A stretch of 20,000 nucleotides of DNA, from positions 1,731,245 through 1,751,244 of the forward strand of contig JAPETS010000001.1 of NCBI GenBank assembly GCA_026023565.1. The letters are read 5' to 3'. The stretch's first letter is position 1; each line of letters starts with the position of its first letter. A program made the position numbers and the translations under genes. The notes beneath the pieces were generated by a model. The model ran no database searches. It was not told the origin of the DNA and saw nothing but the letters and a program-made list of their open reading frames with translations. The DNA is from Cirrosporium novae-zelandiae. Taxonomy: Eukaryota. This document shows positions 1-16,270 of this stretch, piece by piece.

Positions 1-107
1 GTTTGAGTAGCGATTGCAATAACATGCTTATATTAAAGAGAATATCGTTGGCTATATAAAATATGTTATTATCGTAAACCTAGAATATACCTAGGTAGGT
101 AGGGATA

Positions 108-440
108 GGCTACATCAACAGTTTAGTTGATGGACTAGACTGACTAGACCGACTCCCTTGGTTTGGTCGGTCTATTAAAAATTGAGGCCTGGTCTGATCT
201 ATAGACTGTTGGTTATATAGTATCACGTGGAAATAAAATAAGGTGTACGAAATGAAATACCGAGCTCCGATACTCTAAAATATATCCCCCCCACTCTATA
301 ATTCGTATTTATATAGACCATATAGACTTTGGGCAATCAAAATCTGATCGGTCTATCAAAAAACTCGGTCTGGTCGGTCTGGTCTATCCAAAAGTTTGGT
401 TTGGTTGGTTTAAGGTCTATAGACGGTCTATGGTAGCCCC
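108..440. repeat. Degenerate inverted/direct repeat block built of TAGAC/GTCTA motifs; possible MITE or transposon relic
   Basis: 133-152 (gactagactgactagaccga) is the reverse complement of 365-384 (tcggtctggtcggtctggtc) apart from three transitions. ggctac (108-113) and gtagcc (432-437) bound the block as a short inverted pair. There is an imperfect direct repeat, tggtcggtctattaaaaa at ~165 and tgatcggtctatcaaaaa at ~345. No ORF. Confidence 0.4.
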
Positions 441-623: not shown

Positions 624-2727
624 ATGGAAAGAAACAAAGCCAACCAAATAACTGCTGCGGCTGTAGATGAAAAATTTGTGGAGAAATATTCCTTTTCCAG
701 CCCTCTCTTCGACCCTGGACTCTCCGATACCTCATCAGTTTCTTGTCGGTTGAAATCTAATTACACGTCCTCCAAGTCTGCGTCGTTGCAGGTCCTAGAA
801 ATCGCAAATGGGGAATGCAGTAAGAATCTATGATAAAGAAGCAATGAAGATATTAGCTTATTTATATAAGGCCTTCAGGAATGTTCAGCCCTTGAGCTAA
901 TTGATTCGAGTTTGGATGGCTCTTTTAACTCGGTCGAGAATACGGTACAGATGAGAATAATATAGTGCGTAAATAGCTAATGAGATGGGACATAGGATTT
1001 CTCAGGTCGTTCACGAATCGTGTAATGCCTAGCCTGAATACGAGATGGATGATCATAATACTAACATGAAATCTATAGATTTCTTCAACAAAATCCTGAA
1101 GATCAACCTAAAGTCCCTCAAACGGCGATTGATTTAGTTCGGATATTTGAATTCCTGAGGATACCCCCAGCTTATCTCGAAGTGCTGACAGCATATAATG
1201 GGATTCATTCAGCCGTCACTTCATATTCGGAGCATGAATCCACACCTGAACTATTCGGTCCGTCTTGCATATCCTCATATGAACTCCATATATAAAAGAA
1301 AGCCCCATTGCTTAGACCTCTCCTCCTTAGAACTCCTCATTTCAATGCCCGCCATATTCTGCATCATCGGATCGATTTATTTCCGCTACGTCATCCTTAC
1401 CAACACCACCACCCTCTTCATCTTCACCCCTTACACCACCAAGCTAATCACTGCTCTAACTCAAATCTACCGCCCATCTCCTGCTTCTCATTCCAACCCC
1501 TCCACCCCCACTGACCTCTTTACCATCTTCGCAATCATTCTCACCCAGTTCCGCACCTCCCTGGATGAAGAACACAAGAGCCTCCACCAGGAAATCTGCG
1601 ACTTCGAATCTCAGACAGGTCTCATATTTTACCACGGTGGGAAAAGTCTCCCAGAGACCTTGCGGCAGGAATATGGCCAGCTAAAGAGAGGTCCATATGA
1701 GTACGACGGAAGCATTTTGCTATTGGAGTGGATTACTAGGTTTCAGATCGGGTTAACGGAGTTTCTGTTGGAACAACATAAAGTACTCATAGGATTGATT
1801 AGCGAACACGCTTCCTCCCCTTCTCCCCTAAAACTAGAAACAGAAACTAAAACAGCCTGTACCCCCTCCTCTCCTCCTTCTCTTCCACCACACACCACGC
1901 AAAAAACAATCTCCTCCCTAACCCTCCACTTTTCATTCTTAACGCACAACCTCACCCATGTCCTGCGCCTGCGCAATCGCGCCCGCATCCAGCTAAATGT
2001 AGTGGAAAGTTCCATTACCCAAAACGAAAACCTGACCAACATCTCGATTGCTGAATCCACACGGAAGGATGAAGTGGCGATGAAGGAGATTGCTGAATCT
2101 ATACGGAGGGATAGAGTGGCGATGAAGGAGATTGTGGCGGTGACGATGGCATTTTTGCCGGCTACCTTTGTTGCTGTAAGTAAAGTCTCCTTTACTATTT
2201 CCGAAGGAATGGCTATCTATTATCAAAAAAGCGCAGAAAAAAACCTAGCTTGGCTTTTTTTTTCATATTCATCACCACATATCATCCATCCATCCATCCA
2301 TCCACCAACCCATACCCAAACACCCCAAAAACCAACCCGTAGCCTTATTTACCCACACTCACACCCATACTCATCCAAAAACCACAAACGGACCTTCTTC
2401 TCCATGTCCTTTTTTCACAATGGTCCCGAAACCTCCCAATCCGCAATCCACTCCACCGTTTCCAAAAATCGGTATCTCTATCTCGCATTTACGATTCCGC
2501 TTACGCTGGTTGTCGTTGTCGTTTGGATTGGCTGGATTAGATGGAAGGATGAAGGGAAAGGGGTGGGAAAGAGGGGGAAAGAAAGAAGGAGGAGACAGGG
2601 GGGGGATGTGGATGTTGGTGTGGATTCGGAGTGTACGGGGATAGAGGGAAAGGAGAATGGGGATGGGAGTGGGGATTGGGTGGTGGTAGAGGGGAGGAGG
2701 AGGATGAAGGTCGTTGTTGGTGGATAG
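624..2727 (+). CDS. Fungal CorA-like (Mg2+ transporter superfamily) membrane protein; last intron acceptor is non-canonical, so possibly impaired
   Basis: Exons join in frame: 624-819, 871-944, 996-1021, 1079-1257, 1331(or 1316)-2175, 2392-2727, giving about 551 aa. Introns 820-870, 945-995, 1022-1078 and 1258-1330 are GT..AG. The C-terminus has the fungal CorA-like signature: a coiled coil ending in ...RRDRVAMKEIVAVTMAFLPATFVA|TFFSMSFF, then a second TM segment YLYLAFTIPLTLVVVVVWIGW. Confidence 0.75.
2047..2130 (+). repeat. 42-bp in-frame tandem duplication in the CorA-like gene
   Basis: 2047-2088 encodes IAESTRKDEVAMKE and 2089-2130 encodes IAESIRRDRVAMKE; the DNA copies share gtggcgatgaaggag exactly. 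Confidence 0.9.
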
Positions 2728-3379: not shown

Positions 3380-5127
3380 TCAATAAGTATACCTAAACCC
3401 CTCATTCTCCCCATCTGTCCTATCCTCCCTATCCACATCCAACCCTACCATCACCACTTCATTAACCCCTCCCACCCCCACCTCCCCAAACACCCGATCC
3501 CTCCGCTTATTTTCAAAGAAGCAGATGGCCCAGTACGCTAATCCGCAGGCGGCCATAACGGCGAAAGAAAAAAGCATGGCGCCGATTCCTAAAGAGTAGG
3601 TTGGTGATTGGCTGTCGAGGAAGAATTGGGGGCCGATTATGTTGCCGACGGCTGTGGAAGAACGGGAGAGGGAGGTTAGTTTAAGAGAATGTGGGCGTGG
3701 GTATGGGAGGGAAGGATGAGGTTGAGAGGCTTACCGTAGAAAACGGCCGTGGAGACGGAGACGAAGCTTTTTTTCGTCATGCCGGCGGTATTGGAGGTTT
3801 GGAGGCTTAGCATTAATACCCAGGGAACGTTGTAGAAGCCCATCAGATAGACTCCCGCGAGAGAGGCGTCCCTGGAGGTGGTGGCGTCAAGCAGGTGAAC
3901 CATGATTGCCCCTGCGAGAGCAACCAGGCTTGAGAGCACCCAGAAAATGCAACGAAGGTTTGGTACGAAGAAGGTGATTGTGGTGAGGATTGTTTGGGAA
4001 ACCATGGCCACGGCGGCTTGTGGGGTTGCCATCAGGGTGGTTTTGGCGGTTGAGAAGCCGTAGCCGGCTATGATGAGGGGGTTGAAGTTCGTCACGCCTG
4101 CGTTGGTGATTGCTTGGGCGATGATGAAGATGGCTACGGTCCAGTATTTGAGGTCCTGGAGGGCTTCGATGACTTGCGATTTTTTCCAGGCCTGGAGTGT
4201 CGAGAAGGTTAGTGAAAGGTGGATGGGAGGGATGCGTAATGGGCGTTTATACTTTCTTATTCTCAACACCAGTCTGGTTTACTGCGGTCCTGAGCACAGC
4301 AAGTTCCTTTTCTTTCTCGCTCAAGAACCATGCCTTTGCCGGGGAATCAGGCAATAAAAATATGACGGCGATTCCCACACCTATCGTAACGGATCCATAT
4401 ATTATGAAAATATACTGGTCCAGTTAGCCTGAATTCTATCTGGACTGGCGCATTCGGCCTGCTCAATACTGACCCTCCAGGTTGACAGGGCGCCATGGAT
4501 GTTTTTACCGATAGCATAACTAAGAATTCCTCCAAACACTCCGGCAAACGTGTTATACCACAATGCCGTTCTCAATGGTTGCTCCTCTTTGCAATACCAC
4601 ATGGAGTTCAGAACCATGAAGCAGGGTAACATCCCGGCTTCAAAAACACCGAGAAGAAATCGAATAGTAGCGAGGCCCGCGAAATTGCTACAAGCTGCCA
4701 TACAGCAGAGAGCAATTCCCCAACATGTGAGTGAGCCACCTACCCACTTTCCAATCGGGACCCTCGAAAGCAGCCATAACGTGGGGAATTCCATCCCAAG
4801 GTAACCAAAATAAAAGATGGACCCAAGCCAGCTGTATTCTTGACCTTTCAGATGCGCGTCAGTCTTCATTCCCCATACTGCTGCATAGGCCATGCCATTC
4901 TAGATTTCTTTTAGCAATAGCTCTGTAAATGAAATCTGGAGGCTCACCTTGTCGAGAAATGCAAGAGTCATGGCAACTATTAAGATTGGCATAATGACGG
5001 CATCGGTTTTTCTCAGGATCCGTCTATTCACCGCAGGCGACAGATCTTCAAAAGGAACAGCTTCAACAAATCGAGAGTCGGAGCCCTCAATGTCCTGTTG
5101 GACACCATGTTTATCATCCGTTGCCAT
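3380..5127 (-). CDS. MFS transporter, allantoate permease/anion:cation symporter (Dal5-like) family
   Basis: Exons (minus strand) 5127-4948, 4899-4474, 4414-4253, 4191-3735, 3651-3380 total 1497 nt, or 498 aa. All four introns are GT..AG. Family motifs: RILRKTDAVIMP, AFLDK|NGMAYAA, YSWLGSIFYFGYL, RFLLGVFEAG, WYCKEEQPLRTALWY, LPDSPAKAWFL, SNTAGMTKK, GNIIGPQFF, ENKRRD, DRTDGENEGFRYTY. Confidence 0.95.
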
Positions 5128-5300
5128 TATAAAACCTAGCTAGTTGGTATATGCGGGAAGCAATGAGATGAAGCAGCCAGCACCCTGAGTCTATTTTGGC
5201 AGACCCAGGGTATTTGTAAGTTGTTCTGACAATCCATTGCTATGAAGAAAGGGTAGATATCGCAAATAAGTCAGGATTAGCACGTAATTGTGAGATTCGT

Positions 5301-5348
5301 AGATAACTATATCAAGATAGGACAGGTCCGAAGATATTAACAAGATAG
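5301..5348 (+). promoter_or_regulatory. Cluster of three HGATAR (GATA factor, AreA/NIT2-type) sites in the divergent promoter
   Basis: AGATAA at 5301, AGATAG at 5315 and AGATAG at 5343; a further AGATAG at 5708. These are short motifs, so some may be chance matches. Confidence 0.45.
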
Positions 5349-5413
5349 GTTGTCATAAATTTGGAGAAATGCCAATGGCAAGATCTTATTTGCCCGGCAA
5401 TGTGGTTTGACTT

Positions 5414-5427
5414 TCGGTAGCGTCCGA
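5414..5427. promoter_or_regulatory. TCGG-N6-CCGA inverted CGG site (UaY/Ppr1-type Zn2Cys6 binding consensus)
   Basis: The sequence tcgg-tagcgt-ccga lies in the 682-bp intergenic region between the divergent MFS (ATG 5127) and PLP enzyme (ATG 5810) genes. Confidence 0.55.
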
Positions 5428-5809
5428 GGTGGATCCCTGTGCCTGAAATGTGGGCTACTAGTTCCAATGCCAAGAGTATCCAGCTTGCATCACCTTCTGG
5501 TCCAATCACTTGTCAATAAAATCCATGTTTTTTTCACATTCTAAAAGATCCCATGTAATGTGGGAGACTGATGTGCGCTTGTATGAAGATCAAATCCACT
5601 CGAGTATTCCCATTATTTGGTTCCCCATTCAACATTAGCTCAAGGGACCTGACCGAAATACCGGCCTAATGTCATGCCCTGTAGCATCATCTCTAGTATA
5701 TATAAGTAGATAGGAAATTCTCTTTAGATATATATCGACAACTCGGCCACTTCTAACGTTGTAAAATCTGCGACAACGACCACCTTAAACTTCAGAGAAA
5801 TCACAAATT

Positions 5810-6926
5810 ATGAGCTCGGATAAAAGCAACGGGGCCATTGGCTCAGGTGCCACGCATGCTGTCATACACAATGACAAAAATAATACTGTTCTAGTAAAGC
5901 CTTCAACAATACTCAGGGGTCCTCCTTAGCTGACCGGGATCTTGCAGATTGGAATGCGGGATGGAGTGAGCGGAAAGTTCGAATTGTTTCCCCGAGACCA
6001 AGCAAAGATCTCAGTATTCGACTCCAACTTTCTAATCGGAGACGGCATATGGGTAAGCCTTGTCTTGTCTTGTCGAATACCAGACTAACCCTAACCAGGA
6101 AGGCTTACGTGCTTACAAAGGACGCGTACAATTCGCCCGGGAGCACATAAATCGTCTCTTCCAAGCAGCCAAGGCAATGTATATGGACCTGGGAATCTCA
6201 AAGGGAGGATTGCTTGATCTTATCCACAATACGTTGGATGCCAATGAGATGCAGGATAGTACCGATATTCACATTCGACTTGTTGTGAGCCGGGGCCTTA
6301 AATCGACACCCTACCAGAACCCTTCTGTGAATATCGGACTTCCTCTAATTGTCATCATGCCCGAATATAAAGCTGTAGATCCCCTGGCAAAAACCAAAGG
6401 ACTTCGACTTGGAACCTCGCACATTCGTCGTGGCCCTCCCGATGTCAAGGATGAGATGTGGAATCATATTTCCAAGGCTACCGATGTTCAGGCGTGTATA
6501 GGAGCAAATATCAACGGAGTGGATGAAGCCCTCATGCTAGATCCGCATGGATTTGTCAAGACTTGTAATTCCACCAATTTCTTCATCGTCAGAGAAGGTG
6601 TAGTATGGTCACCAACAAAATCCTATCAGATGCAAGGCATCACTAGGCAAAGGATTATTGATATCTGCCGAAAATCTGGAATACCAGTGTTGGAAATTGA
6701 TTTCTCTTTGACAGAAGCCTATGGCGCAGATGAAGCGTTCTGCACGGGAACATTTCCATCTCAGATTTATGTCAAACAGATCGATGGAAGGACGATTGGG
6801 GATGGTCAGATGGGTCCTATCACAAAAAGGTTAATTCAATTGTATGCGGCAGCTGTTGCTAGAGATGCTAGTCGATCGCGAGAAGAGATACGCGCTGAAG
6901 TAGTGAAATCGCAATGGCGTTTGTAG
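5810..6926 (+). CDS. PLP-dependent fold-type IV (aminotransferase class IV, BCAT/D-AAT-like) protein with atypical active-site residues
   Basis: Exons 5810-5893, 5948-6052, 6099-6926 encode 338 aa; introns 5894-5947 and 6053-6098 are canonical. Motifs: AKISVFDSNFLIGDGIW|EGLR, HINRLFQAA, HIRLVVSRG, GVDEALMLDPHGFV, TNFFIVREG, GITRQRII, ADEAFCTGT, IDGRTIGDGQMGPITKRL. Confidence 0.93.
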
Positions 6927-7084: not shown

Positions 7085-9315
7085 ATGGCTGATCCTATGC
7101 TGGCTTTTACGCCTGCTACTTCACGAGCTTGCAGCCGTTGTCATAGTCGCAAAGTTAAAGTACAGTATTGTGCTACTATCCTGTGCATTGATCTTGACTA
7201 ATCTTCGCAGTGTGATTATAGACTTCCGCAGTGTACAGCATGTCAACGCCATGGAGGACAGTGCAATATTACCGAGTGCCTATCATATTCCTACCACGTA
7301 GTCGCATCCCTTCAAGAACGTATACAGACACTCGAAGCCGAGCTTCAAAGCTATCGACTAGGATTTGGCCAAGAAAAAGCGCCACCACCATTAGGACATG
7401 AAAATAGTATACCTCAAGATGCGGAAGATATAAGGAGCTTGGCAGAGGAGGTCGGAAGCCTAGCTCTAGGAGGGAATAGAAATGCAACCATGGAATACGG
7501 TGAGCTAGAATCATTCAAGTATAAAGAGCATAGGCTCAGTTTATATCTGATTCCTTTCATTTGGCATTCATCAGTTTCCAGCATGGAACGGCCGTCGATT
7601 GACAAATCATGTTAATAACCTAACTCGCAGTCGGAAGTGCTTCGGGAGCCACTTTTACAAAGATATTTTTTCGGCAGCTTGGGTTCAAAAGGTCCAATCT
7701 TCTCAACGATCCAGAGTATCCTGAAGCTATACCGCAATCTGGGCTTGACGACATGGTCATACGAGCAGGTCTGCCAAGCCCGAAGGTTGCAGAATTTCTC
7801 CTGTCTAGCTATATATCAAACATCCACATCTGGTGGCCGCTATTAGATCTTTCGACCACTAGAATCTGGCTCAGACAGATGTTCAAGGAACCAGCAAGAT
7901 GTCATGCCCAGATCAAATTTTTCATTTTCATAATCTTCGCATTAGGGGCCCACGAGAGCGCAACCGATCCCGAGTATTTAAAAATGCGTGATATTTATTC
8001 TCCAAAAGAGTATTTTGCAACCTGTTCCCAGTATTATGAGAACATCTCCTATACGGGACGGGACTTGAGGAATGTGCAGGCATGCCTGCTTCTGACACTG
8101 TGGATGCTACGCTCTTTGGATAATATGAACTATAATAATTTGTGGCAAATGAGCCGTCTGACAATGAGTATTGCAATTGAAATTGGCTGTCATCGCAATA
8201 ATCCTCGGTGGAAACTTGGTACAGCAGAACAGGAGTTGCGCAATAGGGTATTTTGGTGCACATTCGGGATGGAAAGGTAATGTCATGGCTGCCTTGGTTG
8301 ATGGAGCTAACAAAGAACAGAATGATAGCAGTATTTACGGGGCGCGTCCTGTCTATCCGGAACCATGCTATTGATGCTCCATTTCCGCGCGCTATGGATA
8401 GTGATACCTTAACTAGATCCCAGGCAAGAGGATCGCCAACTTTAGAATTGAAAGGCCTCCTTCCTGCTATCCACATGTTCCGACTGAGGCGGATAGCGGG
8501 TGATGTGCTCGAATCCGTTTATATTGCACGACCCGCTGCGAATTCCAAGATGGACCAGATATATAGCACCGTAGATAGGTTACGGGGGGAACTAATTGAG
8601 TGGATGGCTAATACAGACAAGGCCGCCACCCCAGGATCTAAAGAACACATGGAATTGGTTATTGAACATTCTCTAACTGTTCTCATCCTGAATCGGCCTT
8701 CCCCAACATTTATAATACCTTCTCCTACAATGCTTGCGGCTTGCCAGGAGGCATCAGACATTGCTTTAAAATTGTGGACAAAACTCCTAATATCTAGTAC
8801 CTCGACATCTGTTATTAATTTTCGGACGTTTAAAGACATCCTTATTACTGGAGTTGCAGGACTATATTGCGCTTGGTAAGTCCATTCCATAACCCAACCA
8901 AAGAAACCTATCCGGTTGTTAATCTCCTGTGCCTATTAGGAGATCACCAAACCCCAGCTCTGCCAATATATCAGACACCTCAACAATGTGTTTAGATTTA
9001 CTTGATAGAGCTTGTCGAGAGAGACCTAGTCTTATTAAATATAGACATCTCTATGCCGCCCTTGTGGAAGCCACCATGGCGGCTTGTGAGAAGCAAGCCG
9101 TCTTGAAGCAATCTCATCAAGATCTTACGATGATGCTTGAACCACTTGATGCACAATCTGCAAATGCTGTTGATGCTGTTCTTGGAGATGTATCATCTGT
9201 AATGGGCTGGAATACAGCAGATTCCTCTTTGGATGACTGGCTATCAGCTTTGATGGCGGACCCTAATGACCTTGTATCCACAAGTTTAGATTCCCCAGGT
9301 CACCAGTTCATGTGA
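7085..9315 (+). CDS. Zn(II)2Cys6 transcription factor with fungal middle homology region (UaY/Ppr1-like)
   Basis: Exons 7085-7159, 7211-7499, 7631-8276, 8321-8875, 8940-9315 encode 646 aa. Zinc cluster ACSRCHSRKVK|CDYRLPQCTACQRHGGQC is followed by a coiled coil (VASLQERIQTLEAEL), YVGSASGATF, the MHR motif AIEIGCHRN...ELRNRVFWCTFGMER|MIAVFTGRVLSI...IDAPFP, and an acidic C-terminal tail. Confidence 0.93.
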
Positions 9316-11007
9316 TAAAGTGTATCCTTGGGAATTTATTTTCTTGCTTTGAACTTCCAACATAGAAGTATAGGCTCCTGAGGTTGGAGTAAAAATATTC
9401 TACCCAGTAATCTTACTACAAGGCAAAGTTGCTCATTCATTACTGGCGAAGCAACTGAAACAGAAAACTCAAACACACTGCAGTGCAAATAAAGCCTACT
9501 CATGCAGCAGCAACTAGCCCGACTTCGAGTTTGACCCGGCGAACAGCTGTCATCCCCAGATTTGATCGACAATCAGGGCCCTGATCTTTTCCGGTATCGG
9601 AATGCTGGTCCGACTAAAGTATACTGTACAGTACATGTACCTAGCAACCTAGGCTATTAAGAGCCTCTCGAAGCAAACATATTTGGATTGCCTTGGGGGG
9701 GCCTTTAAACTAAATGAGGTTTCGGTCAAAACTAGGATTAGGAGTAGGATTAGAATTTGATATATTCAGGAGAACTGTAGATCTCGTTCTTATATACCTT
9801 TGGTCCCTTTTAATTGATTTTTTTATCTTGTTATTGTTGTTGCAGGCAGTGTTGGTAATGATGGAGAAATTGAAGTATTGGTAACGGACGTTATCTCTCG
9901 ATACTACTTCCATGATCCCTAGGGTATCTTAAGCGCACTGTCGCGGGATGCTTGAGGTCAGAATCTGGTCCGTGGTGATGAAAAAAACCTAGTGGGTTCG
10001 TCAAGCTGGACGCTTCTACTGCAAAGTGGGCTGTGCTGGTATGGAAAGCAAATTTCAACGAATCCACCGAGGTAGGCAAAACGACGAGACTGGAGTAAAA
10101 ATTACTTGATAAATTGTCATTTTCGGAATTTCAGAGCTGACGCGATCGTTGTCGACATTAGCAAGAAAAAAGGCATAAGTAAAGGGACCTGGAAGACGTT
10201 AGACAATAGTACGGATGACTAGACGCGTGGGGTGGTATCCTTGGCGGTCGGGGAATTTACCATCTGCAGCGATAGGAACGAGAAGGAAGCTTAAAACAAA
10301 TGGTACGACAGAGATAGCCTTCTTTGCTCCAGTTCGTCCGTTTCTGCATCATGGTATTTCAGCTATTTGATGGTGTTTGACCTGTTATTCATTAAATCAC
10401 CTAACCAATCAATCCTCACAGATTGCATCTTGCCAAGATCCAGACATTACTTTTGTCGGGTTATAGCTTGAGCAGATAGTCAAGTCGAACTAAGCACATC
10501 TGGGCGACACCTAGACAATTCTTGTCTCGTGGCCGTTGCATCGAAGGAAGCTAGATGGTAGCTAGAAGATAAGAAATCCCTAGGTGAATGGGGACCTTCC
10601 TGTCTGATCCTGGAGTAGCAAAAGGCTTCACCACCGTCAAGCAATGATCCGCTCCCACCATCAGAAAACAATCCACCAATCGTCCGTTGAATTGCACGGT
10701 CACTCCGGACGGGGGAAATCAATACGACCAGATAGATAGGCCATGAACCATGGCATTGGTGACCAAACCTTTGTCCTTTGGAATGTTTAGGAAGGAAATC
10801 CATGACCCCATTTGCCTTGGCGCTTAATGCAACCTCAGGAAACGCCCGTCCGTTGTTGATGGTGCAACCCTCACTCGACCTTGTCTTGGTGGTGATCTTC
10901 CCGCCACGAGAGGACTGCATATTTATTTATGTGTTCCTACCCGTCTCCATGGTCTCTTTACTTCTACTCTTTTTTCATCCAGGTTCCTGAGTTCCCAAGT
11001 CCCTGAA

Positions 11008-11035
11008 CCCCCCCCCCCCCCCCCCCCCCCCCCCC
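11008..11035 (+). repeat. Poly(C)28 homopolymer just upstream of the PTR2 start codon
   Basis: 28 consecutive C ending 27 nt before ATG 11063. Confidence 0.9.
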
Positions 11036-11062
11036 AGGAGGTTTTCTATTACCTGTGTCACC

Positions 11063-13427
11063 ATGAATCCTGTCAATGCGCTCGAGAGCCAGGAGTTGGC
11101 AAAGGGACATGAACCCAAACTGGCAACTCCAGTTCTGGAAAAAGAGCTGGAGTTGAAGGCCAATGATCATCCATCAATAACCGAGGTTGATCCGGACAAA
11201 CCATCGCCGACCGAGGAGGAACTCCAGACTTTGCATCGAGTTCCTGGAAAGGTCCCTTGGCAAGCTTACAGTGTTGGCTTTGTCGAATTTTGCGAGCGTT
11301 TCTCCTACTATGGATGTACTGCCGTTTGTATGTCCACTGTCACTCCAACTAGATTATAAGGTGCTAATAAATATGTCTAGATGTCAATTTCATTCAACAG
11401 CCACTGCCAGATGGGTCCTCCACTGGCGCAGGTTTTTCTGGCCAGTCTGGTGCATTGGGTATGGGTCAGAGAGCTTCAACCGGATTGACAACTTGTAAGC
11501 AAATCCAAACTAATATATTGAGGGTGGTGGGGGACCGGATATTTTCGTACCATGACTTGAGCGAATCGTACATGTCTTTTCACCGCCCTCAACCTCAACC
11601 ATAACGATACAACACTCTCATGCTCACTCATGTATAGTCAACTCGTTCTGGTCATACACAATGCCCCTTGCGGGTGCATATGTAGCTGATCAATACTGGG
11701 GACGCTTCAAGACAATTCAATGTGGTATTGGTCTTGCGCTTCTCGGCCATTTGATCTTGGTCATCTCCGCAATTCCACCTGTCCTCAAGAATCCTCATGG
11801 AGGCCTAGCTGCCTTTACAATTGGATTAGTAATCATGGGCCTTGGAACCGGGGCTTTCAAGCCCAATGTCTCTGTCCTGATCTCAGAGCAGTACAGAGAG
11901 ACAAGGATGTATGTCACCACAGACAAAAAAGGACAACGTGTCATTGTAGACCCTTCATTGACAATCTCCCGAATTTACTTGTGGTTTTATCTGATGATCA
12001 ATATCGGCTCTTTGATTGGCCAGATTACAATGGTATATGCGGAAAAATACGTTGGTTTCTATCTTGCGTTTCTTCTCCCGACACTCATGTTTACCATGGC
12101 CCCCATCGTCTTATTCATATGCCGACACAAGTATATCCTTGCGCCCCCAACCGGTTCCGTTCTTGGAAAGGCCTTGCATTTATGGGCGTTCGCAGCCAAG
12201 GGCCGTTGGTCATGGAACCCAGCAACGACAAGGTATCTAGAAACGCTACAGAGCCTTTGAACATTCAGGTCAGCTAATGGTATTATAGGAAGAACATGTT
12301 GGCCGACGATTTTTGGGAAAAGGCGAAGCCAAGCAACGTAGCGATCAAGCCGAAATGGATGACCTTTGACGATGCCTGGGTAGACGAGGTTCGTCGTGGA
12401 TTGATGGCATGCAGGGTGTTTCTTTGGTATCCGCTTTACTGTAAGTTTTTTACTCTTATCTAATATGGGACCGGTGATTGGTATTTAGCTATTTGTAAAT
12501 TTGAGCACCGAGAAGCTCTCGGTTGGAAATCAATGCCAATGTACTTGGCTAGGGGCTAAATACTAATGACCTGGGACTGTATTTATAACCTAACTGGAGG
12601 CTCACTATTTTATAGGGCTGTGCTATGTCCAGATTAACAACAACATCACATCTCAGGCCGCTACAATGGAGCTTCACGGTGCCCCTAATGATCTGATCCA
12701 GAATCTGGATCCTTTGGCCATCATTATCCTCATTCCTATCCTCGACATCTGGGTTTACCCTGCCATGCGAAAAGCAGGAATCAGATTCACACCATTGAAA
12801 AAGATTGCCTGCGGTTTCTTTGTTGCCGCATGTGGCATGGTGTCAGCAGCCGTGATTCAGTACTATATTTACCACACAGGTGCATGCGGACACTACATGA
12901 ACTCCTGTGATACAGTTGGTAAGCATCTCCAATCCAAGTATCCTCCCATCCCAAACATCATTTCAATCAACCTAAGTTAGATAGAACTAACAAACTATAT
13001 AATTCTAGCTCCAATCAATGTGTGGGTCCAAACAGTGCCATATGTCCTCGTGGCCATGTCCGAGATCCTAGCTTCTGTAACGAGCTTGGAATATGCCTTC
13101 ACCAAAGCACCTAAAAACATGCGATCCACCGTCCAAGCCGTCGCTCTCTTCATGAATGCAATTTCCTCTGCCATTGCCCAAGCCTTTGTCTCCCTGTCAG
13201 ATGACCCCCTTCTCATCTGGAACTATTCTGTCATCGCCATCCTCGCCTTCATCGGTGGCTGCGGCTTCTGGCTGAATAACTATAAGCTGGATAGGGAGGA
13301 GGATAAGCTCAACATGCTTCCGGCGGCGAGCTATTCGGGAAAGACGAGAGACGAAACCAGAGTAGAGGAGGAGGGAGCCGAGATAGTGGGGTCTTCTGTT
13401 GAAGGTGAAATCAACGAGAAGAAGTAA
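11063..13427 (+). CDS. PTR2: POT/PTR family proton-dependent di/tripeptide transporter
   Basis: Exons 11063-11327, 11381-11494, 11638-12232, 12289-12440, 12616-12918, 13009-13427 encode 615 aa. Motifs: VEFCERFSYYG (ExxERFxYYG), GAYVADQYWGRFKTI, GLGTGAFKPNVS, FYLMINIGSL, LEYAFTKAPKNMRS. Confidence 0.96.
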
Positions 13428-14536: not shown

Positions 14537-14791
14537 GGTTTTTTTGTTTTGAGTGTGTGGGTTTGATTAGATTAGATTAGATGGAATTTTGTGCGGTTAA
14601 GTATATGTAGGTGTCATTTTTATTGTGTTTGAATTAATTTCAATAATTCCTTGGAGGGTTCCAAGCAGGATGAAGTGGGCAATATACTCGACTTTCCATT
14701 CCCAACATCGCCCTCTTCCATTCTGGTGATAGTGCTGTTGGAAGCATTCAATGAGGAAGGATGCTGACTAAGTGCCGCCAAGGATCTAGGA

Positions 14792-16270
14792 ATGACAACA
14801 GTTCTGTTCGATACAAGACATGATACGAATACATCCGCCATGTCTCACAAAATCTCGGTGGAATTGTCACATTCCACTTGCAATCACGATACCCTGATAT
14901 TAGAATCTTCTGGTTATGTCTCCAAGGTGGATTATACAAGGCCCGCCGAGCAACAACGAGCGGCGGCCACGACAGCACAAGGACGCATCAATTCAAATCC
15001 AAAAGGTAAAAGGAAACGAGGAGTAGAGAACGCGCCTGAATTTTTATTATCAGAATTGTTTCCTGCTCCATTGGTGCTACCCGGGGATGATCTGGCACTA
15101 GATCCTCAATATCCCTCCCAGAGTCTACGCTCATGGGTACGGGAGAAGGAACGCAACAAAGTAACATCTGAGAGGAACACTGTCTATGTGGCAGCGTCTC
15201 CGGAAGTGGGAGCTGACGTTAATTTCATTCGCGCCTGGAGCGAAGTGCAACAACAGGATAACGAGAATCATCCTCCATACCCAACGCAACCTCAGGTGCA
15301 GGATGTTGTAGATTACCTATCTGCTTTCTATTATGGATTGCCCGTCAAGAAGCTCTCTGCGAAGCTCCACTTTACAAGCTGGGATGATGGCCATTCAAAA
15401 ACTAAGAAAGCCAAAACCCGTGCTTCAACACCAAACTTCATTGGACTCAATACCTCTCTTGAATGCGTGCGCATCCGCACCCGACCCTCTAGGGATGACA
15501 TATTTCCTCGCCAACTTAATTTGGATGATCTTCTAGATGCAGCAATAAGTGTATTGCCGGACGATGCGTACGCATTACTAATGCTTGTGCAGCATGACCT
15601 CTTCGAAGAGGAGGACGACCTATTTGTATGCGGTCGAGCATATGGAGGCAGCCGTGTAGCAGTCATCTCTACCGCAAGATACAACCCGGAGCTAGATAGT
15701 GTACAAGACGTAGAGCGAGACCATGCTTGGCCCGCATCACACTGCGAGGAGTATCTACAGGAACGCTGTGCGAGCACCTCGAAACAAATTGGACGACCTA
15801 AAAAGAAGACCAAGACCTCAGCTGCTGCTTCAGACAAGCATAATTCCTCATTCTCGATTTCCATGGATGGTATCACGATTTCCCCGCTGCAGGCTGCCGT
15901 ATCCGCCCACAGAGCTTTACCCTCATTAATAGAAGCACCCTCCACCGCAGCGCTCTCAGGCTTGTGGCTCGGTCGCGTATGCCGCACCTCGAGCCACGAG
16001 CTCGGCCACTGCTTTGGCATGGATCACTGTGTATATTATGCCTGCTCCATGCAGGGCAGCGCATCGCTCACGGAGGATGCCCGACAACCACCATACCTCT
16101 GTCCCGTTGATTTGGCAAAGATGCTACGAGCTACGGGGGCAGATGCGGGGGATCGCTTAGAGGCGCTTCTGGCCTTCTGTGGGCACCGTGATCATGAAGA
16201 TGTTCATTTGTTTAAGGCGTTTGCGGCATGGATTCGGTGTCGGTTGGCAATAATGAAAAACTTGGACTGA
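14792..16270 (+). CDS. Archaemetzincin-like (peptidase family M54) zinc metalloprotease
   Basis: Intronless 492-aa ORF (alternative start ATG 14840). It has the HEXXHXXGXXH motif followed by the archaemetzincin Cys pattern (HELGHCFGMDHCVYYACSMQG...YLCPVDLAK), plus RQLNLDDLLD, DLF...FVCGRA and RVAVISTARY. No obvious signal peptide. Confidence 0.9.
   Translation: MTTVLFDTRHDTNTSAMSHKISVELSHSTCNHDTLILESSGYVSKVDYTRPAEQQRAAATTAQGRINSNPKGKRKRGVENAPEFLLSELFPAPLVLPGDDLALDPQYPSQSLRSWVREKERNKVTSERNTVYVAASPEVGADVNFIRAWSEVQQQDNENHPPYPTQPQVQDVVDYLSAFYYGLPVKKLSAKLHFTSWDDGHSKTKKAKTRASTPNFIGLNTSLECVRIRTRPSRDDIFPRQLNLDDLLDAAISVLPDDAYALLMLVQHDLFEEEDDLFVCGRAYGGSRVAVISTARYNPELDSVQDVERDHAWPASHCEEYLQERCASTSKQIGRPKKKTKTSAAASDKHNSSFSISMDGITISPLQAAVSAHRALPSLIEAPSTAALSGLWLGRVCRTSSHELGHCFGMDHCVYYACSMQGSASLTEDARQPPYLCPVDLAKMLRATGADAGDRLEALLAFCGHRDHEDVHLFKAFAAWIRCRLAIMKNLD

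Follow-up and report, generated by a model that had tools for sequence, protein, structure and literature searches.

A stand-alone fungal member of a lysine-less fold-type IV branch, encoded between a transporter and a regulator gene in Cirrosporium novae-zelandiae

The window analysed here is a stretch of 20,000 nucleotides from the fungus Cirrosporium novae-zelandiae (contig JAPETS010000001.1). It contains a gene for a protein of fold type IV, the fold of the aminotransferases that act on branched-chain amino acids (BCATs) and of D-amino-acid transaminases (D-AATs), enzymes that hold pyridoxal 5'-phosphate (PLP) through a Schiff-base lysine. The fungal protein is a member of a branch of this fold that lacks both the lysine and the glutamate facing the pyridine nitrogen. 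The gene has the following structure.

5810-6926, plus strand: fold-type IV gene of three exons with GT..AG introns; spliced product of 338 amino acids.
5810..5893, plus strand: exon 1, residues 1-28; ATG at 5810 and GTAAAG donor at 5894; holds the family-specific stretch G-A-T-H-A-V-I-H-N-D-K-N-N.
5948..6052, plus strand: exon 2, residues 29-63; acceptor CTTGCAG ending at 5947 and donor GTAAGC from 6053; the join is colinear with the database protein P0003.
6099..6926, plus strand: exon 3, residues 64-338 and stop codon; most of the PF01063 domain, 100% identical to P0003.

The splice sites were assigned from the GT-AG rule and from colinearity with homologues. The spliced product matches P0003 letter for letter; this entry is recorded as a hypothetical protein from a metagenome-assembled genome of C. 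novae-zelandiae, a species placed in the class Xylobotryomycetes of the Pezizomycotina. The first-pass annotation, which had been made from the letters of the window without database searches, was centred on positions 6420-6590 and thus spanned just the middle part of the gene. The product of exon 3 matches the Pfam family PF01063 (Aminotran_4) with 113.2 bits (cut-off 28.5, E 2.2e-32), and the 338-residue protein carries no additional domain. The second intron (window 6053-6098) is absent from the orthologue found on two metagenome contigs with the same locus (L082 and L083), where exon 2 is continuous with exon 3 (L082 8001-8912); intron content therefore varies within fungi.

A structural model was computed with AlphaFold (AF2) from an alignment of 52 sequences, with a predicted local distance difference test score (pLDDT) of 89.2 and a predicted template modelling score (pTM) of 0.88. 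An earlier model based on 34 fungal sequences reached a pLDDT of 80.6 and was of low confidence at residues 50-58 and 175-188. The best structural match of the model used is chain B of PDB entry 7Z79, with a VIA Z score of 39.7, a root mean square deviation (rmsd) of 1.5 Å over 304 residues, 42% sequence identity and a Foldseek TM score of 0.90. Comparison with BCATs and D-AATs gave Z scores of about 33-36 and rmsd values of 1.6-2.2 Å over 276-292 residues; the archaeal BCATs scored 35.5-36.0 in an alignment starting at about residue 26, E. coli IlvE 33.8 and the Bacillus D-AAT 32.6. The two-domain fold is thus predicted to be intact, and its likeness to the canonical fold-type IV enzymes (5mqz, 1i1k, 1daa, 4ce5, 4chi, 1et0; Z 31-36) extends to the PF01063 domain and to the phosphate-binding arginine and threonines. 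Unlike the BCATs, D-AATs, (R)-amine transaminases and aminodeoxychorismate (ADC) lyase, the fungal protein has no Schiff-base lysine, no tyrosine at PLP O3' and no glutamate at the ring nitrogen N1.

Entry 7Z79, released in 2022 as an 'aminotransferase-like protein' of Variovorax paradoxus, also ranks first in the PDB by sequence (E 2.9e-60) and is the only member of this branch with a solved structure. A second entry, 9J32 (released 2025), is the N174K mutant of the same Variovorax homologue, in which a lysine stands in the column of Asn185 of the fungal protein. The N-terminal extension is matched structurally only by these two entries: 7z79_B aligns from its residue 9 over the model range 12..325, that is, from residue 12 of the model as against about residues 22-27 for BCATs and D-AATs. 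Within this extension, the stretch G-A-T-H-A-V-I-H-N-D-K-N-N aligns with a 'GTH..V.D.RN' motif of bacterial and algal relatives. A signature that combines Asn at the lysine position, Ser or Thr at the glutamate position and a following C-N-[SA]-[TV]-[NH] was found in the fungal protein, in 7Z79 and in 80 bacterial loci. The fungal gene therefore belongs to the 7Z79 type, and the suggestion of the first-pass annotation that its motifs recall a poorly characterised bacterial-type subfamily agrees with this assignment.

Residue conservation was assessed over 199 sequences, comprising 119 fungal-like matches (P0004-P0122), which were drawn from the best 120 of 6071 database matches and aligned to a profile of the fungal family, and the 80 bacterial loci. 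The positions concerned lie in exon 3.

6462..6464, plus strand: Asn185, in place of the Schiff-base lysine; Asn in 119/119 fungal-like sequences and 80/80 bacterial loci.
6474..6476, plus strand: Lys189, at the position of the tyrosine that contacts PLP O3'; Lys in 119/119 fungal-like sequences, Lys in 40/80 and Arg in 40/80 bacterial loci.
6561..6578, plus strand: T218-C219-N220-S221-T222-N223, which replaces E-G-x-x-x-N; Thr218 (codon 6561-6563) is at the position of the glutamate of pyridine N1.
6144-6158, plus strand: H-I-N-R-L, with the retained phosphate-cup arginine Arg82 at 6153..6155.
6636..6647, plus strand: G-I-T-R, retained phosphate-binding turn with Thr245, invariant (199/199).
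6744..6752, plus strand: T279-G280-T281, retained phosphate- or carboxylate-binding turn; Thr279 invariant (199/199).

Aligned by HMMER with 5mqz, the holo BCAT of Archaeoglobus fulgidus, the protein matches without gaps across both motifs. The alignment places N-H-I-S-K on K-S-L-N-Y, with Asn on Lys and Lys on Tyr, and G-F-V-K-T-C-N-S-T-N on G-Y-V-S-E-G-S-G-D-N, with Thr on Glu. The first-pass annotation had arrived at the same three replacements by manual alignment, with exact codons. Its further points, that the HINRL, GITR and TGT phosphate-binding elements are kept and that the protein is not an ordinary transaminase, hold as well, the former in the gene and across its relatives, the latter by the loss of all three ring-contact residues and by the scores against curated family models. 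In the NCBIfam collection, the protein, searched without its first 63 residues, matched 17 models of BCATs, D-AATs and ADC lyase, every one with a score under its curated cut-off (for example 185.5 against 363, 167.6 against 245.55 and 105 against 277.45), and two full-length bacterial relatives likewise remain below them. Judged from these alignments, none of the three residues in contact with the pyridoxal ring (lysine, tyrosine and glutamate) remains, and the phosphate cup (Arg82, Thr245, Thr279/281) is kept.

The 119 fungal-like sequences all share N185, H186, S188, K189, K217, T218 and N220, and residues H121, R123, N185, S188, N220, T245 and T279 are invariant across the full set of 199. 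Since N185, K189 and T218 occur in 119/119 fungal-like sequences and N185 in 80/80 bacterial ones, the residue changes are neither chance nor sequencing error. Glu152, Lys154 and Cys219 occur throughout the bacterial loci (80/80) and are almost universal among the fungal-like sequences, the exceptions being gaps in incomplete entries and three glycines at position 219; Cys219 is followed by Asn220 in all 80 bacterial loci. Position 218 is Thr in 119/119 fungal-like sequences and, in bacteria, Thr in 41/80 and Ser in 39/80. Arg82 is found in 80/80 bacterial and 102/119 fungal-like sequences, the remaining 17 being gaps in incomplete proteins, and Thr281 in 77/80 and 119/119, respectively. The carboxylate arginine of the parent enzymes is retained as Arg123, and His121 and Glu152 stand where the BCATs have the tyrosine and tryptophan of their substrate pocket.

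The comparison with 7Z79 follows the same pattern. Like the fungal protein, it has Asn at the lysine position, a hydroxyl residue at the glutamate position followed by C-N-S-T-N, and a preserved phosphate cup; it differs in having Arg in the column of Lys189 and Ser in that of Thr218, and the fungal clade adds K180, H186 and K217. Lysine at positions 180 and 217 is confined to the fungal clade, with F/L/Q/I and A/S/N at these positions in bacteria and Q and A/V in algal homologues, and the family as a whole shares no lysine in the neighbourhood of the former Schiff-base position. Lys180 of the 'PDVK' stretch was considered as the true catalytic lysine, reached by a one-residue shift, and was ruled out, as it occurs in fungi only.

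The best 120 of the 6071 database matches are 64-100% identical to the query, and those carrying names represent more than 30 genera of Ascomycota and two of Basidiomycota (Sporobolomyces and Pseudohyphozyma). An exhaustive search of cluster representatives gave 15823 matches at E <= 0.001, of which 149 (P0123-P0271) were classified by the residues in the columns of the canonical Lys, Tyr and Glu.

N/K/T: 37 of 149 representatives.
N/R/S: 10 of 149 representatives.
K/Y/E (canonical): 29 of 149 representatives.
H/L/E: 16 of 149 representatives, with a few more H/Q/E or H/M/E.
Gaps in all three columns: 12 of 149 representatives; the remainder are scattered or partial.

An N-terminal PF19798 (Sulfotransfer_5) domain precedes PF01063 in 15 of 16 long representatives, of the N type and the H type alike. 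A search restricted to longer proteins returned 34 matches, of which 23 are PF19798 + PF01063 fusions; every named one is from a green alga (Micractinium, Chlorella, Myrmecia, Parachlorella, Tetraselmis, Scenedesmus, Auxenochlorella, Nannochloris and Chlamydomonas). The algal fusions are 48-57% identical to the fungal protein, are its closest non-fungal relatives and share its N/K/T residues; the fungal protein differs from them in having no sulfotransferase domain. Such fusions, named 'branched-chain-amino-acid aminotransferase-like protein 1/2', also exist in land plants, and a protein atlas contains PF19798-type clusters from bacteria and plants. One paper likewise mentions a plant member of the BCAT family that carries PF19798 (PMC13725701). 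The remaining long matches include eight Colletotrichum models that fuse PF00172, PF01063 and PF04082 and one Didymella model that fuses PF01063 with PF07690; these are a sign of adjacent genes merged by annotation.

The His-type proteins, which likewise carry a PF19798 fusion, form a sister group (examples are P0145, P0151, P0153, P0162, P0163, P0167 and P0168). They have a histidine at the lysine position and keep the glutamate of N1 (S-K-I-H-H-N-N ... E-T-N-A-T-N), and they have His121, Glu152 and Lys154 in common with the Asn type. The change from lysine to histidine resembles that in the sugar dehydratases that depend on pyridoxamine 5'-phosphate (PMP). The six BCAT paralogues of Aspergillus nidulans, BatA-F, were considered as possible members of the lysine-less family and excluded, each retaining the catalytic lysine according to the authors who describe them (PMC8262921).

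In prokaryotes, a scan of one genome per species gave at least 588 confirmed stretches, and the best 80 loci (L001-L080) were examined; these span Pseudomonadota, Actinomycetota, Chloroflexota, Bacteroidota, Balneolota, Gemmatimonadota and Trueperaceae. Neighbouring PF19798 genes were counted with a hidden Markov model built from four such neighbours and a distance threshold of 300 nucleotides (nt), and the loci were grouped by the residues at positions 189 and 218.

Lys/Thr subtype: PF19798 within 300 nt in 34/40 loci, mostly directly downstream on the same strand; none in 5 loci whose flanks reach 1 kb or more on each side; 1 locus with short flanks.
Arg/Ser subtype: PF19798 within 300 nt in 7/39 loci; 1 at 659 nt; none in 26; flanks short in 5.
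Arg/Thr subtype: PF19798 within 300 nt in 1/1 locus.

Residues 189 and 218 thus co-vary with gene context. Genes of the Arg/Ser subtype, to which 7Z79 belongs, lie mostly behind an ATP-binding cassette (ABC) transporter of the polar-amino-acid type, with a GntR or similar regulator, and in one locus behind an NhaC-type carrier. Apart from the PF19798 pair, the Lys/Thr-type loci share nothing in their flanks. Two Arg/Ser-type loci contain a further gene.

L019 4218-5672, minus strand: MmgE/PrpD-family protein beside the Arg/Ser-type gene and ABC transporter of Pectobacterium polonicum.
L029 8690-10294, plus strand: MmgE/PrpD-family protein beside the Arg/Ser-type gene and ABC transporter of Rhizobium rhizogenes.

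With K189 and T218, the fungal protein has the residues of the subtype whose bacterial genes adjoin PF19798 and whose algal relatives carry PF19798 fused. The nearest solved relatives of the PF19798 profile are the activating sulfotransferases CurM ST and OLS ST (PDB 4gbm, 4gox; E 5.8e-08 and 9.8e-07, respectively), in matches that are weak and partial, covering profile positions 60-193 of 241; they are related to the PF19798 partner and not to the fold-type IV gene. The PF19798 family retains a G-P-R-N-x-S-T loop and an R-x-P...S stretch, which we take to be motifs for binding 3'-phosphoadenosine 5'-phosphosulfate (PAPS). With an algal PF19798 domain as the query against shorter proteins, no fungal name appeared among the best 120 of 7693 matches, and the clusters listed in the protein atlas were bacterial and plant ones only; neither result by itself shows the domain to be absent from fungi.

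Phylogenetic relationships were estimated from 70 sequences under the LG+C20+F+G4 model with posterior mean site frequencies (PMSF); the tree was rooted on the His-type group, and eight canonical rows of an earlier quick tree were omitted. The N-type group forms one clade, with support of 100 in the quick tree, which had a canonical outgroup, and 100/100 in the careful tree. Twelve fungal sequences from Ascomycota and Basidiomycota group together in one clade (100/100), which belongs to a larger one of 30 sequences that also takes in the algal and other PF19798-fused proteins (100/99), the fused proteins P0123 and P0125 being nearest to the fungi (91/81 and 88/79); the non-algal fused proteins were assumed to be eukaryotic from their architecture and similarity. 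The eukaryotic clade is in turn nested among proteobacterial sequences of the Lys/Thr type (94/84, 95/87 and 99/90), and the Arg/Ser type stands apart as a clade of its own (99/94). The same overall picture emerged from the quick trees.

These data suggest that the eukaryotic branch probably came from bacteria. This bacterial ancestry is older than the fungal clade and is common to green algae. The first-pass annotation had raised a horizontal origin for the fungal gene. Its bacterial ancestry is borne out by the nesting among proteobacterial sequences, but an acquisition by fungi is not: there is no sign of a fungus-specific bacterial transfer, since the fungal clade lies inside a sulfotransferase-fused eukaryotic clade that is itself nested in proteobacteria. 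Most likely, the sampled fungal clade of Ascomycota and Basidiomycota lost the sulfotransferase domain.

In the window, the fold-type IV gene is flanked by a transporter gene and a regulator gene.

About 3380..5139, minus strand: major facilitator superfamily (MFS) transporter gene of the anion:cation symporter type, several exons; divergent from and upstream of the fold-type IV gene.
5140..5809: intergenic region between the MFS and fold-type IV genes, with CGG/CCG half-site pairs.
About 7085..8879, plus strand: gene for a Zn2Cys6/fungal-specific transcription factor, several exons; PF04082 (1.9e-14) on 7624-8277.

The transporter gene matches PF07690 (MFS_1, 5.3e-16) and, on two exons, TIGR00893 (2A0114, 4.3e-27 and 2.1e-07). 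The cysteine-rich stretch of the regulator, C-x2-C-x6-C ... C-x2-C-x6-C, is interrupted by an intron at about 7165-7210. A metagenome scan gave five fungal-like loci, two of which (L082 and L083) are the same; three independent contigs extend upstream of the gene, and L084 is too short to do so. On all three (L081, L082/L083 and L085), an orthologue of the MFS gene stands divergently beside the fold-type IV gene, with 39-80% identity by piece and 65-74% over the main exon (4402-4899). On L082/L083, an orthologue of the regulator adjoins the gene on its other side, in convergent orientation. Taken with the mis-fused models of Colletotrichum (regulator) and Didymella (MFS), these contigs indicate that the unit of transporter, fold-type IV protein and regulator is conserved across several classes of Pezizomycotina.

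Pairs of CGG/CCG half-sites are typical of Zn2Cys6 regulators. The intergenic region of the window holds CGGTAGCGTCCG at 5415-5426 and CCGAAATACCGG at 5653-5664, one of the form CGG-N6-CCG and one CCG-N6-CGG. In L081 (896-1064) and L085 (1791-1959), which are close relatives, the matching region contains four near-identical palindromes of the CGGACNNGTCCG type. One such site per 670 bases is near chance, and the fourfold repeat in L081 and L085 is beyond it; the half-site pairs are candidates for binding by the adjacent Zn2Cys6 regulator.

The reading we favour, to which we give an even chance, is that the protein converts or binds an organic anion taken up from outside and probably works without covalently bound PLP. 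On this reading, the protein would be incapable of a normal transaminase cycle and would not hold PLP through a lysine. Lys189 would bind the anionic group of the ligand and have no Schiff-base role; the exchange of Lys and Arg at this position fits anion binding and not a Schiff base. The old phosphate cup would hold a phosphate-like or sulfate-like group, and the invariant His121, Glu152, Lys154, Cys219 and Asn220 look, from their conservation, like a rebuilt catalytic or binding site. Taken together, the retained cup and Arg123, the Lys or Arg found at position 189 and a transporter of the anion type suggest that the ligand, which the protein would convert or tightly bind, is a small organic anion that would carry a phosphate-like or sulfate-like group and probably a carboxylate. 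In fungi, the adjacent transporter would import this anion under the control of the adjacent regulator; in bacteria and algae, it would be made or consumed by the coupled sulfotransferase.

Several points weigh against this reading. With the phosphate cup intact, PLP or PMP could be bound non-covalently, and fold-type II PLP enzymes normally present a serine or threonine to N1. The invariance of Lys189 in all fungal-like sequences, taken by itself, also fits a catalytic lysine. The loop of Asn185 is the least confident part of both structural models (pLDDT 43 and 68 for residues 181-190); Lys189 immediately precedes a predicted helix (residues 190-201) in the model used. No match to the PF19798 profile was found in the 20-kb window (best E 0.71), and co-regulation of the three fungal genes is deduced from their conserved adjacency alone.

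Among the alternatives, PLP or PMP bound non-covalently by the phosphate cup, with the amine or keto group of the substrate reacting directly, is possible but on balance unlikely. Such a scheme would resemble that of the fold-type I PMP-dependent sugar dehydratases (ColD/E1 type), which have His in place of Lys. The invariance of the phosphate-cup residues is in its favour, as is the sister group of His type, where the retained glutamate of N1 hints that the common ancestor was still a cofactor enzyme. However, the Asn-type proteins have lost all three ring contacts, not the lysine alone, and an invariant cysteine and asparagine occupy the place next to the site of the ring nitrogen.

A more speculative proposal, and a rather improbable one, is that the family consists of PLP-independent sulfate-ester lyases of a new kind on a transaminase scaffold. 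The cup would hold a sulfate ester, PF19798 would activate the substrate by sulfation, an elimination or substitution would follow, and the fungi would keep the lyase half alone. CurM ST and OLS ST sulfate a hydroxyl so that it can leave, chemistry that suggests an activate-then-eliminate logic for the pair of PF19798 and fold-type IV protein; in those systems, however, the downstream enzyme is a thioesterase and not a fold-type IV protein. Cys219, His121, Glu152 and Lys154 might be used in catalysis. The Dikarya would have dropped the sulfotransferase and would feed, by means of the transporter and regulator, on a sulfated or otherwise anionic metabolite of other organisms.

Of similarly low probability is a non-catalytic role, in which fungi kept the protein for binding or regulation, as a sensor of a ligand or as what was once the sulfotransferase's partner subunit. 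The catalytic residues of the parent family are indeed lost, the relatives are tightly coupled or fused to PF19798, and the fungal gene adjoins a regulator. Yet the new polar set of His121, Glu152, Lys154, Ser188, Cys219 and Asn220 is invariant from bacteria to fungi, which points to a rebuilt rather than a decaying active site; moreover, in the Arg/Ser-type bacterial loci and the fungal loci it stands next to a transporter and a regulator as the only enzyme-like gene, an arrangement usual for small catabolic units.

The first-pass annotation had suggested that PLP is still bound, perhaps through the displaced lysine (Lys189), and that the chemistry may be elimination, aldol cleavage or racemisation. 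Covalent attachment of this kind now appears improbable, whether the lysine is Lys189 or one nearby. Lys189 is present in 119/119 fungal-like sequences together with the kept phosphate cup, K180 and K217 supply the fungal clade with two more invariant lysines close to the site, and a hydroxyl side chain at N1 is a usual feature of beta-eliminating fold-type II enzymes. But position 189 is Arg in half of the bacterial relatives (40/80) and in the solved homologue, and Arg is incapable of forming a Schiff base; K180 and K217 are not lysine in bacteria or in the algal fusions, and no lysine of the region is kept family-wide. The mutant 9J32, judged by the title of its entry, restores a lysine at the Asn position, suggesting that the wild type is without a working one. 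Finally, an ordinary BCAT or D-AAT, its odd residues being artefacts of alignment or annotation, is scarcely credible: the overall fold, 34-35% identity to archaeal BCATs and database names such as 'branched-chain amino acid aminotransferase' speak for it, but the gapless HMMER motifs, the agreement of 119/119 relatives, the scores below the cut-offs of the curated models and a separate clade at 100/100 all speak against it.

Searches of the literature yielded no function for the lysine-less fold-type IV family or for the PF19798 fusions. In the portions of the papers on PF19798 (Sulfotransfer_5) that were available, the domain is merely listed and given no function; a literature search on the plant loci At5g27410 and At3g05190 found nothing, and a preprint on aminotransferase evolution and a paper on DtolTA contained nothing on the lysine-less family. 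What was known is thus a family with a crystal structure; what is new is the stand-alone fungal protein of the Lys/Thr type in a transporter-regulator unit. The family is large and strongly conserved, occurring in at least 588 bacterial or archaeal species genomes as well as in green algae, land plants and many fungi, and its genes are widely labelled 'branched-chain amino acid aminotransferase', a name that the sequence contradicts and that calls for caution in annotation. The fungal members separate the protein from its usual sulfotransferase partner. Their three-gene unit occurs in tractable moulds (Fusarium, Penicillium, Aspergillus and Colletotrichum) and could reveal the substrate of the family; the interest of the locus lies mainly in this, as the fungal unit makes the function of the family testable.

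Three further genes or open reading frames were noted elsewhere in the window. An open frame of 512 amino acids at 1189-2727 (plus strand) is rich in Ser, Pro and Thr, has hydrophobic stretches near its end and gave no match in Pfam or NCBIfam. A second frame, of 500 amino acids at 14768-16270 (plus strand), has a C-terminal archaemetzincin-like (Peptidase_M54) stretch, with matches to PF07998 (1.6e-07) and NF033823 (2.3e-17) that are partial or below the full-length cut-offs. Between them, at 10991-13427 (plus strand), lies a multi-exon gene for a peptide transporter of the PTR2/POT type, with PF00854 matched on three open-reading-frame pieces.

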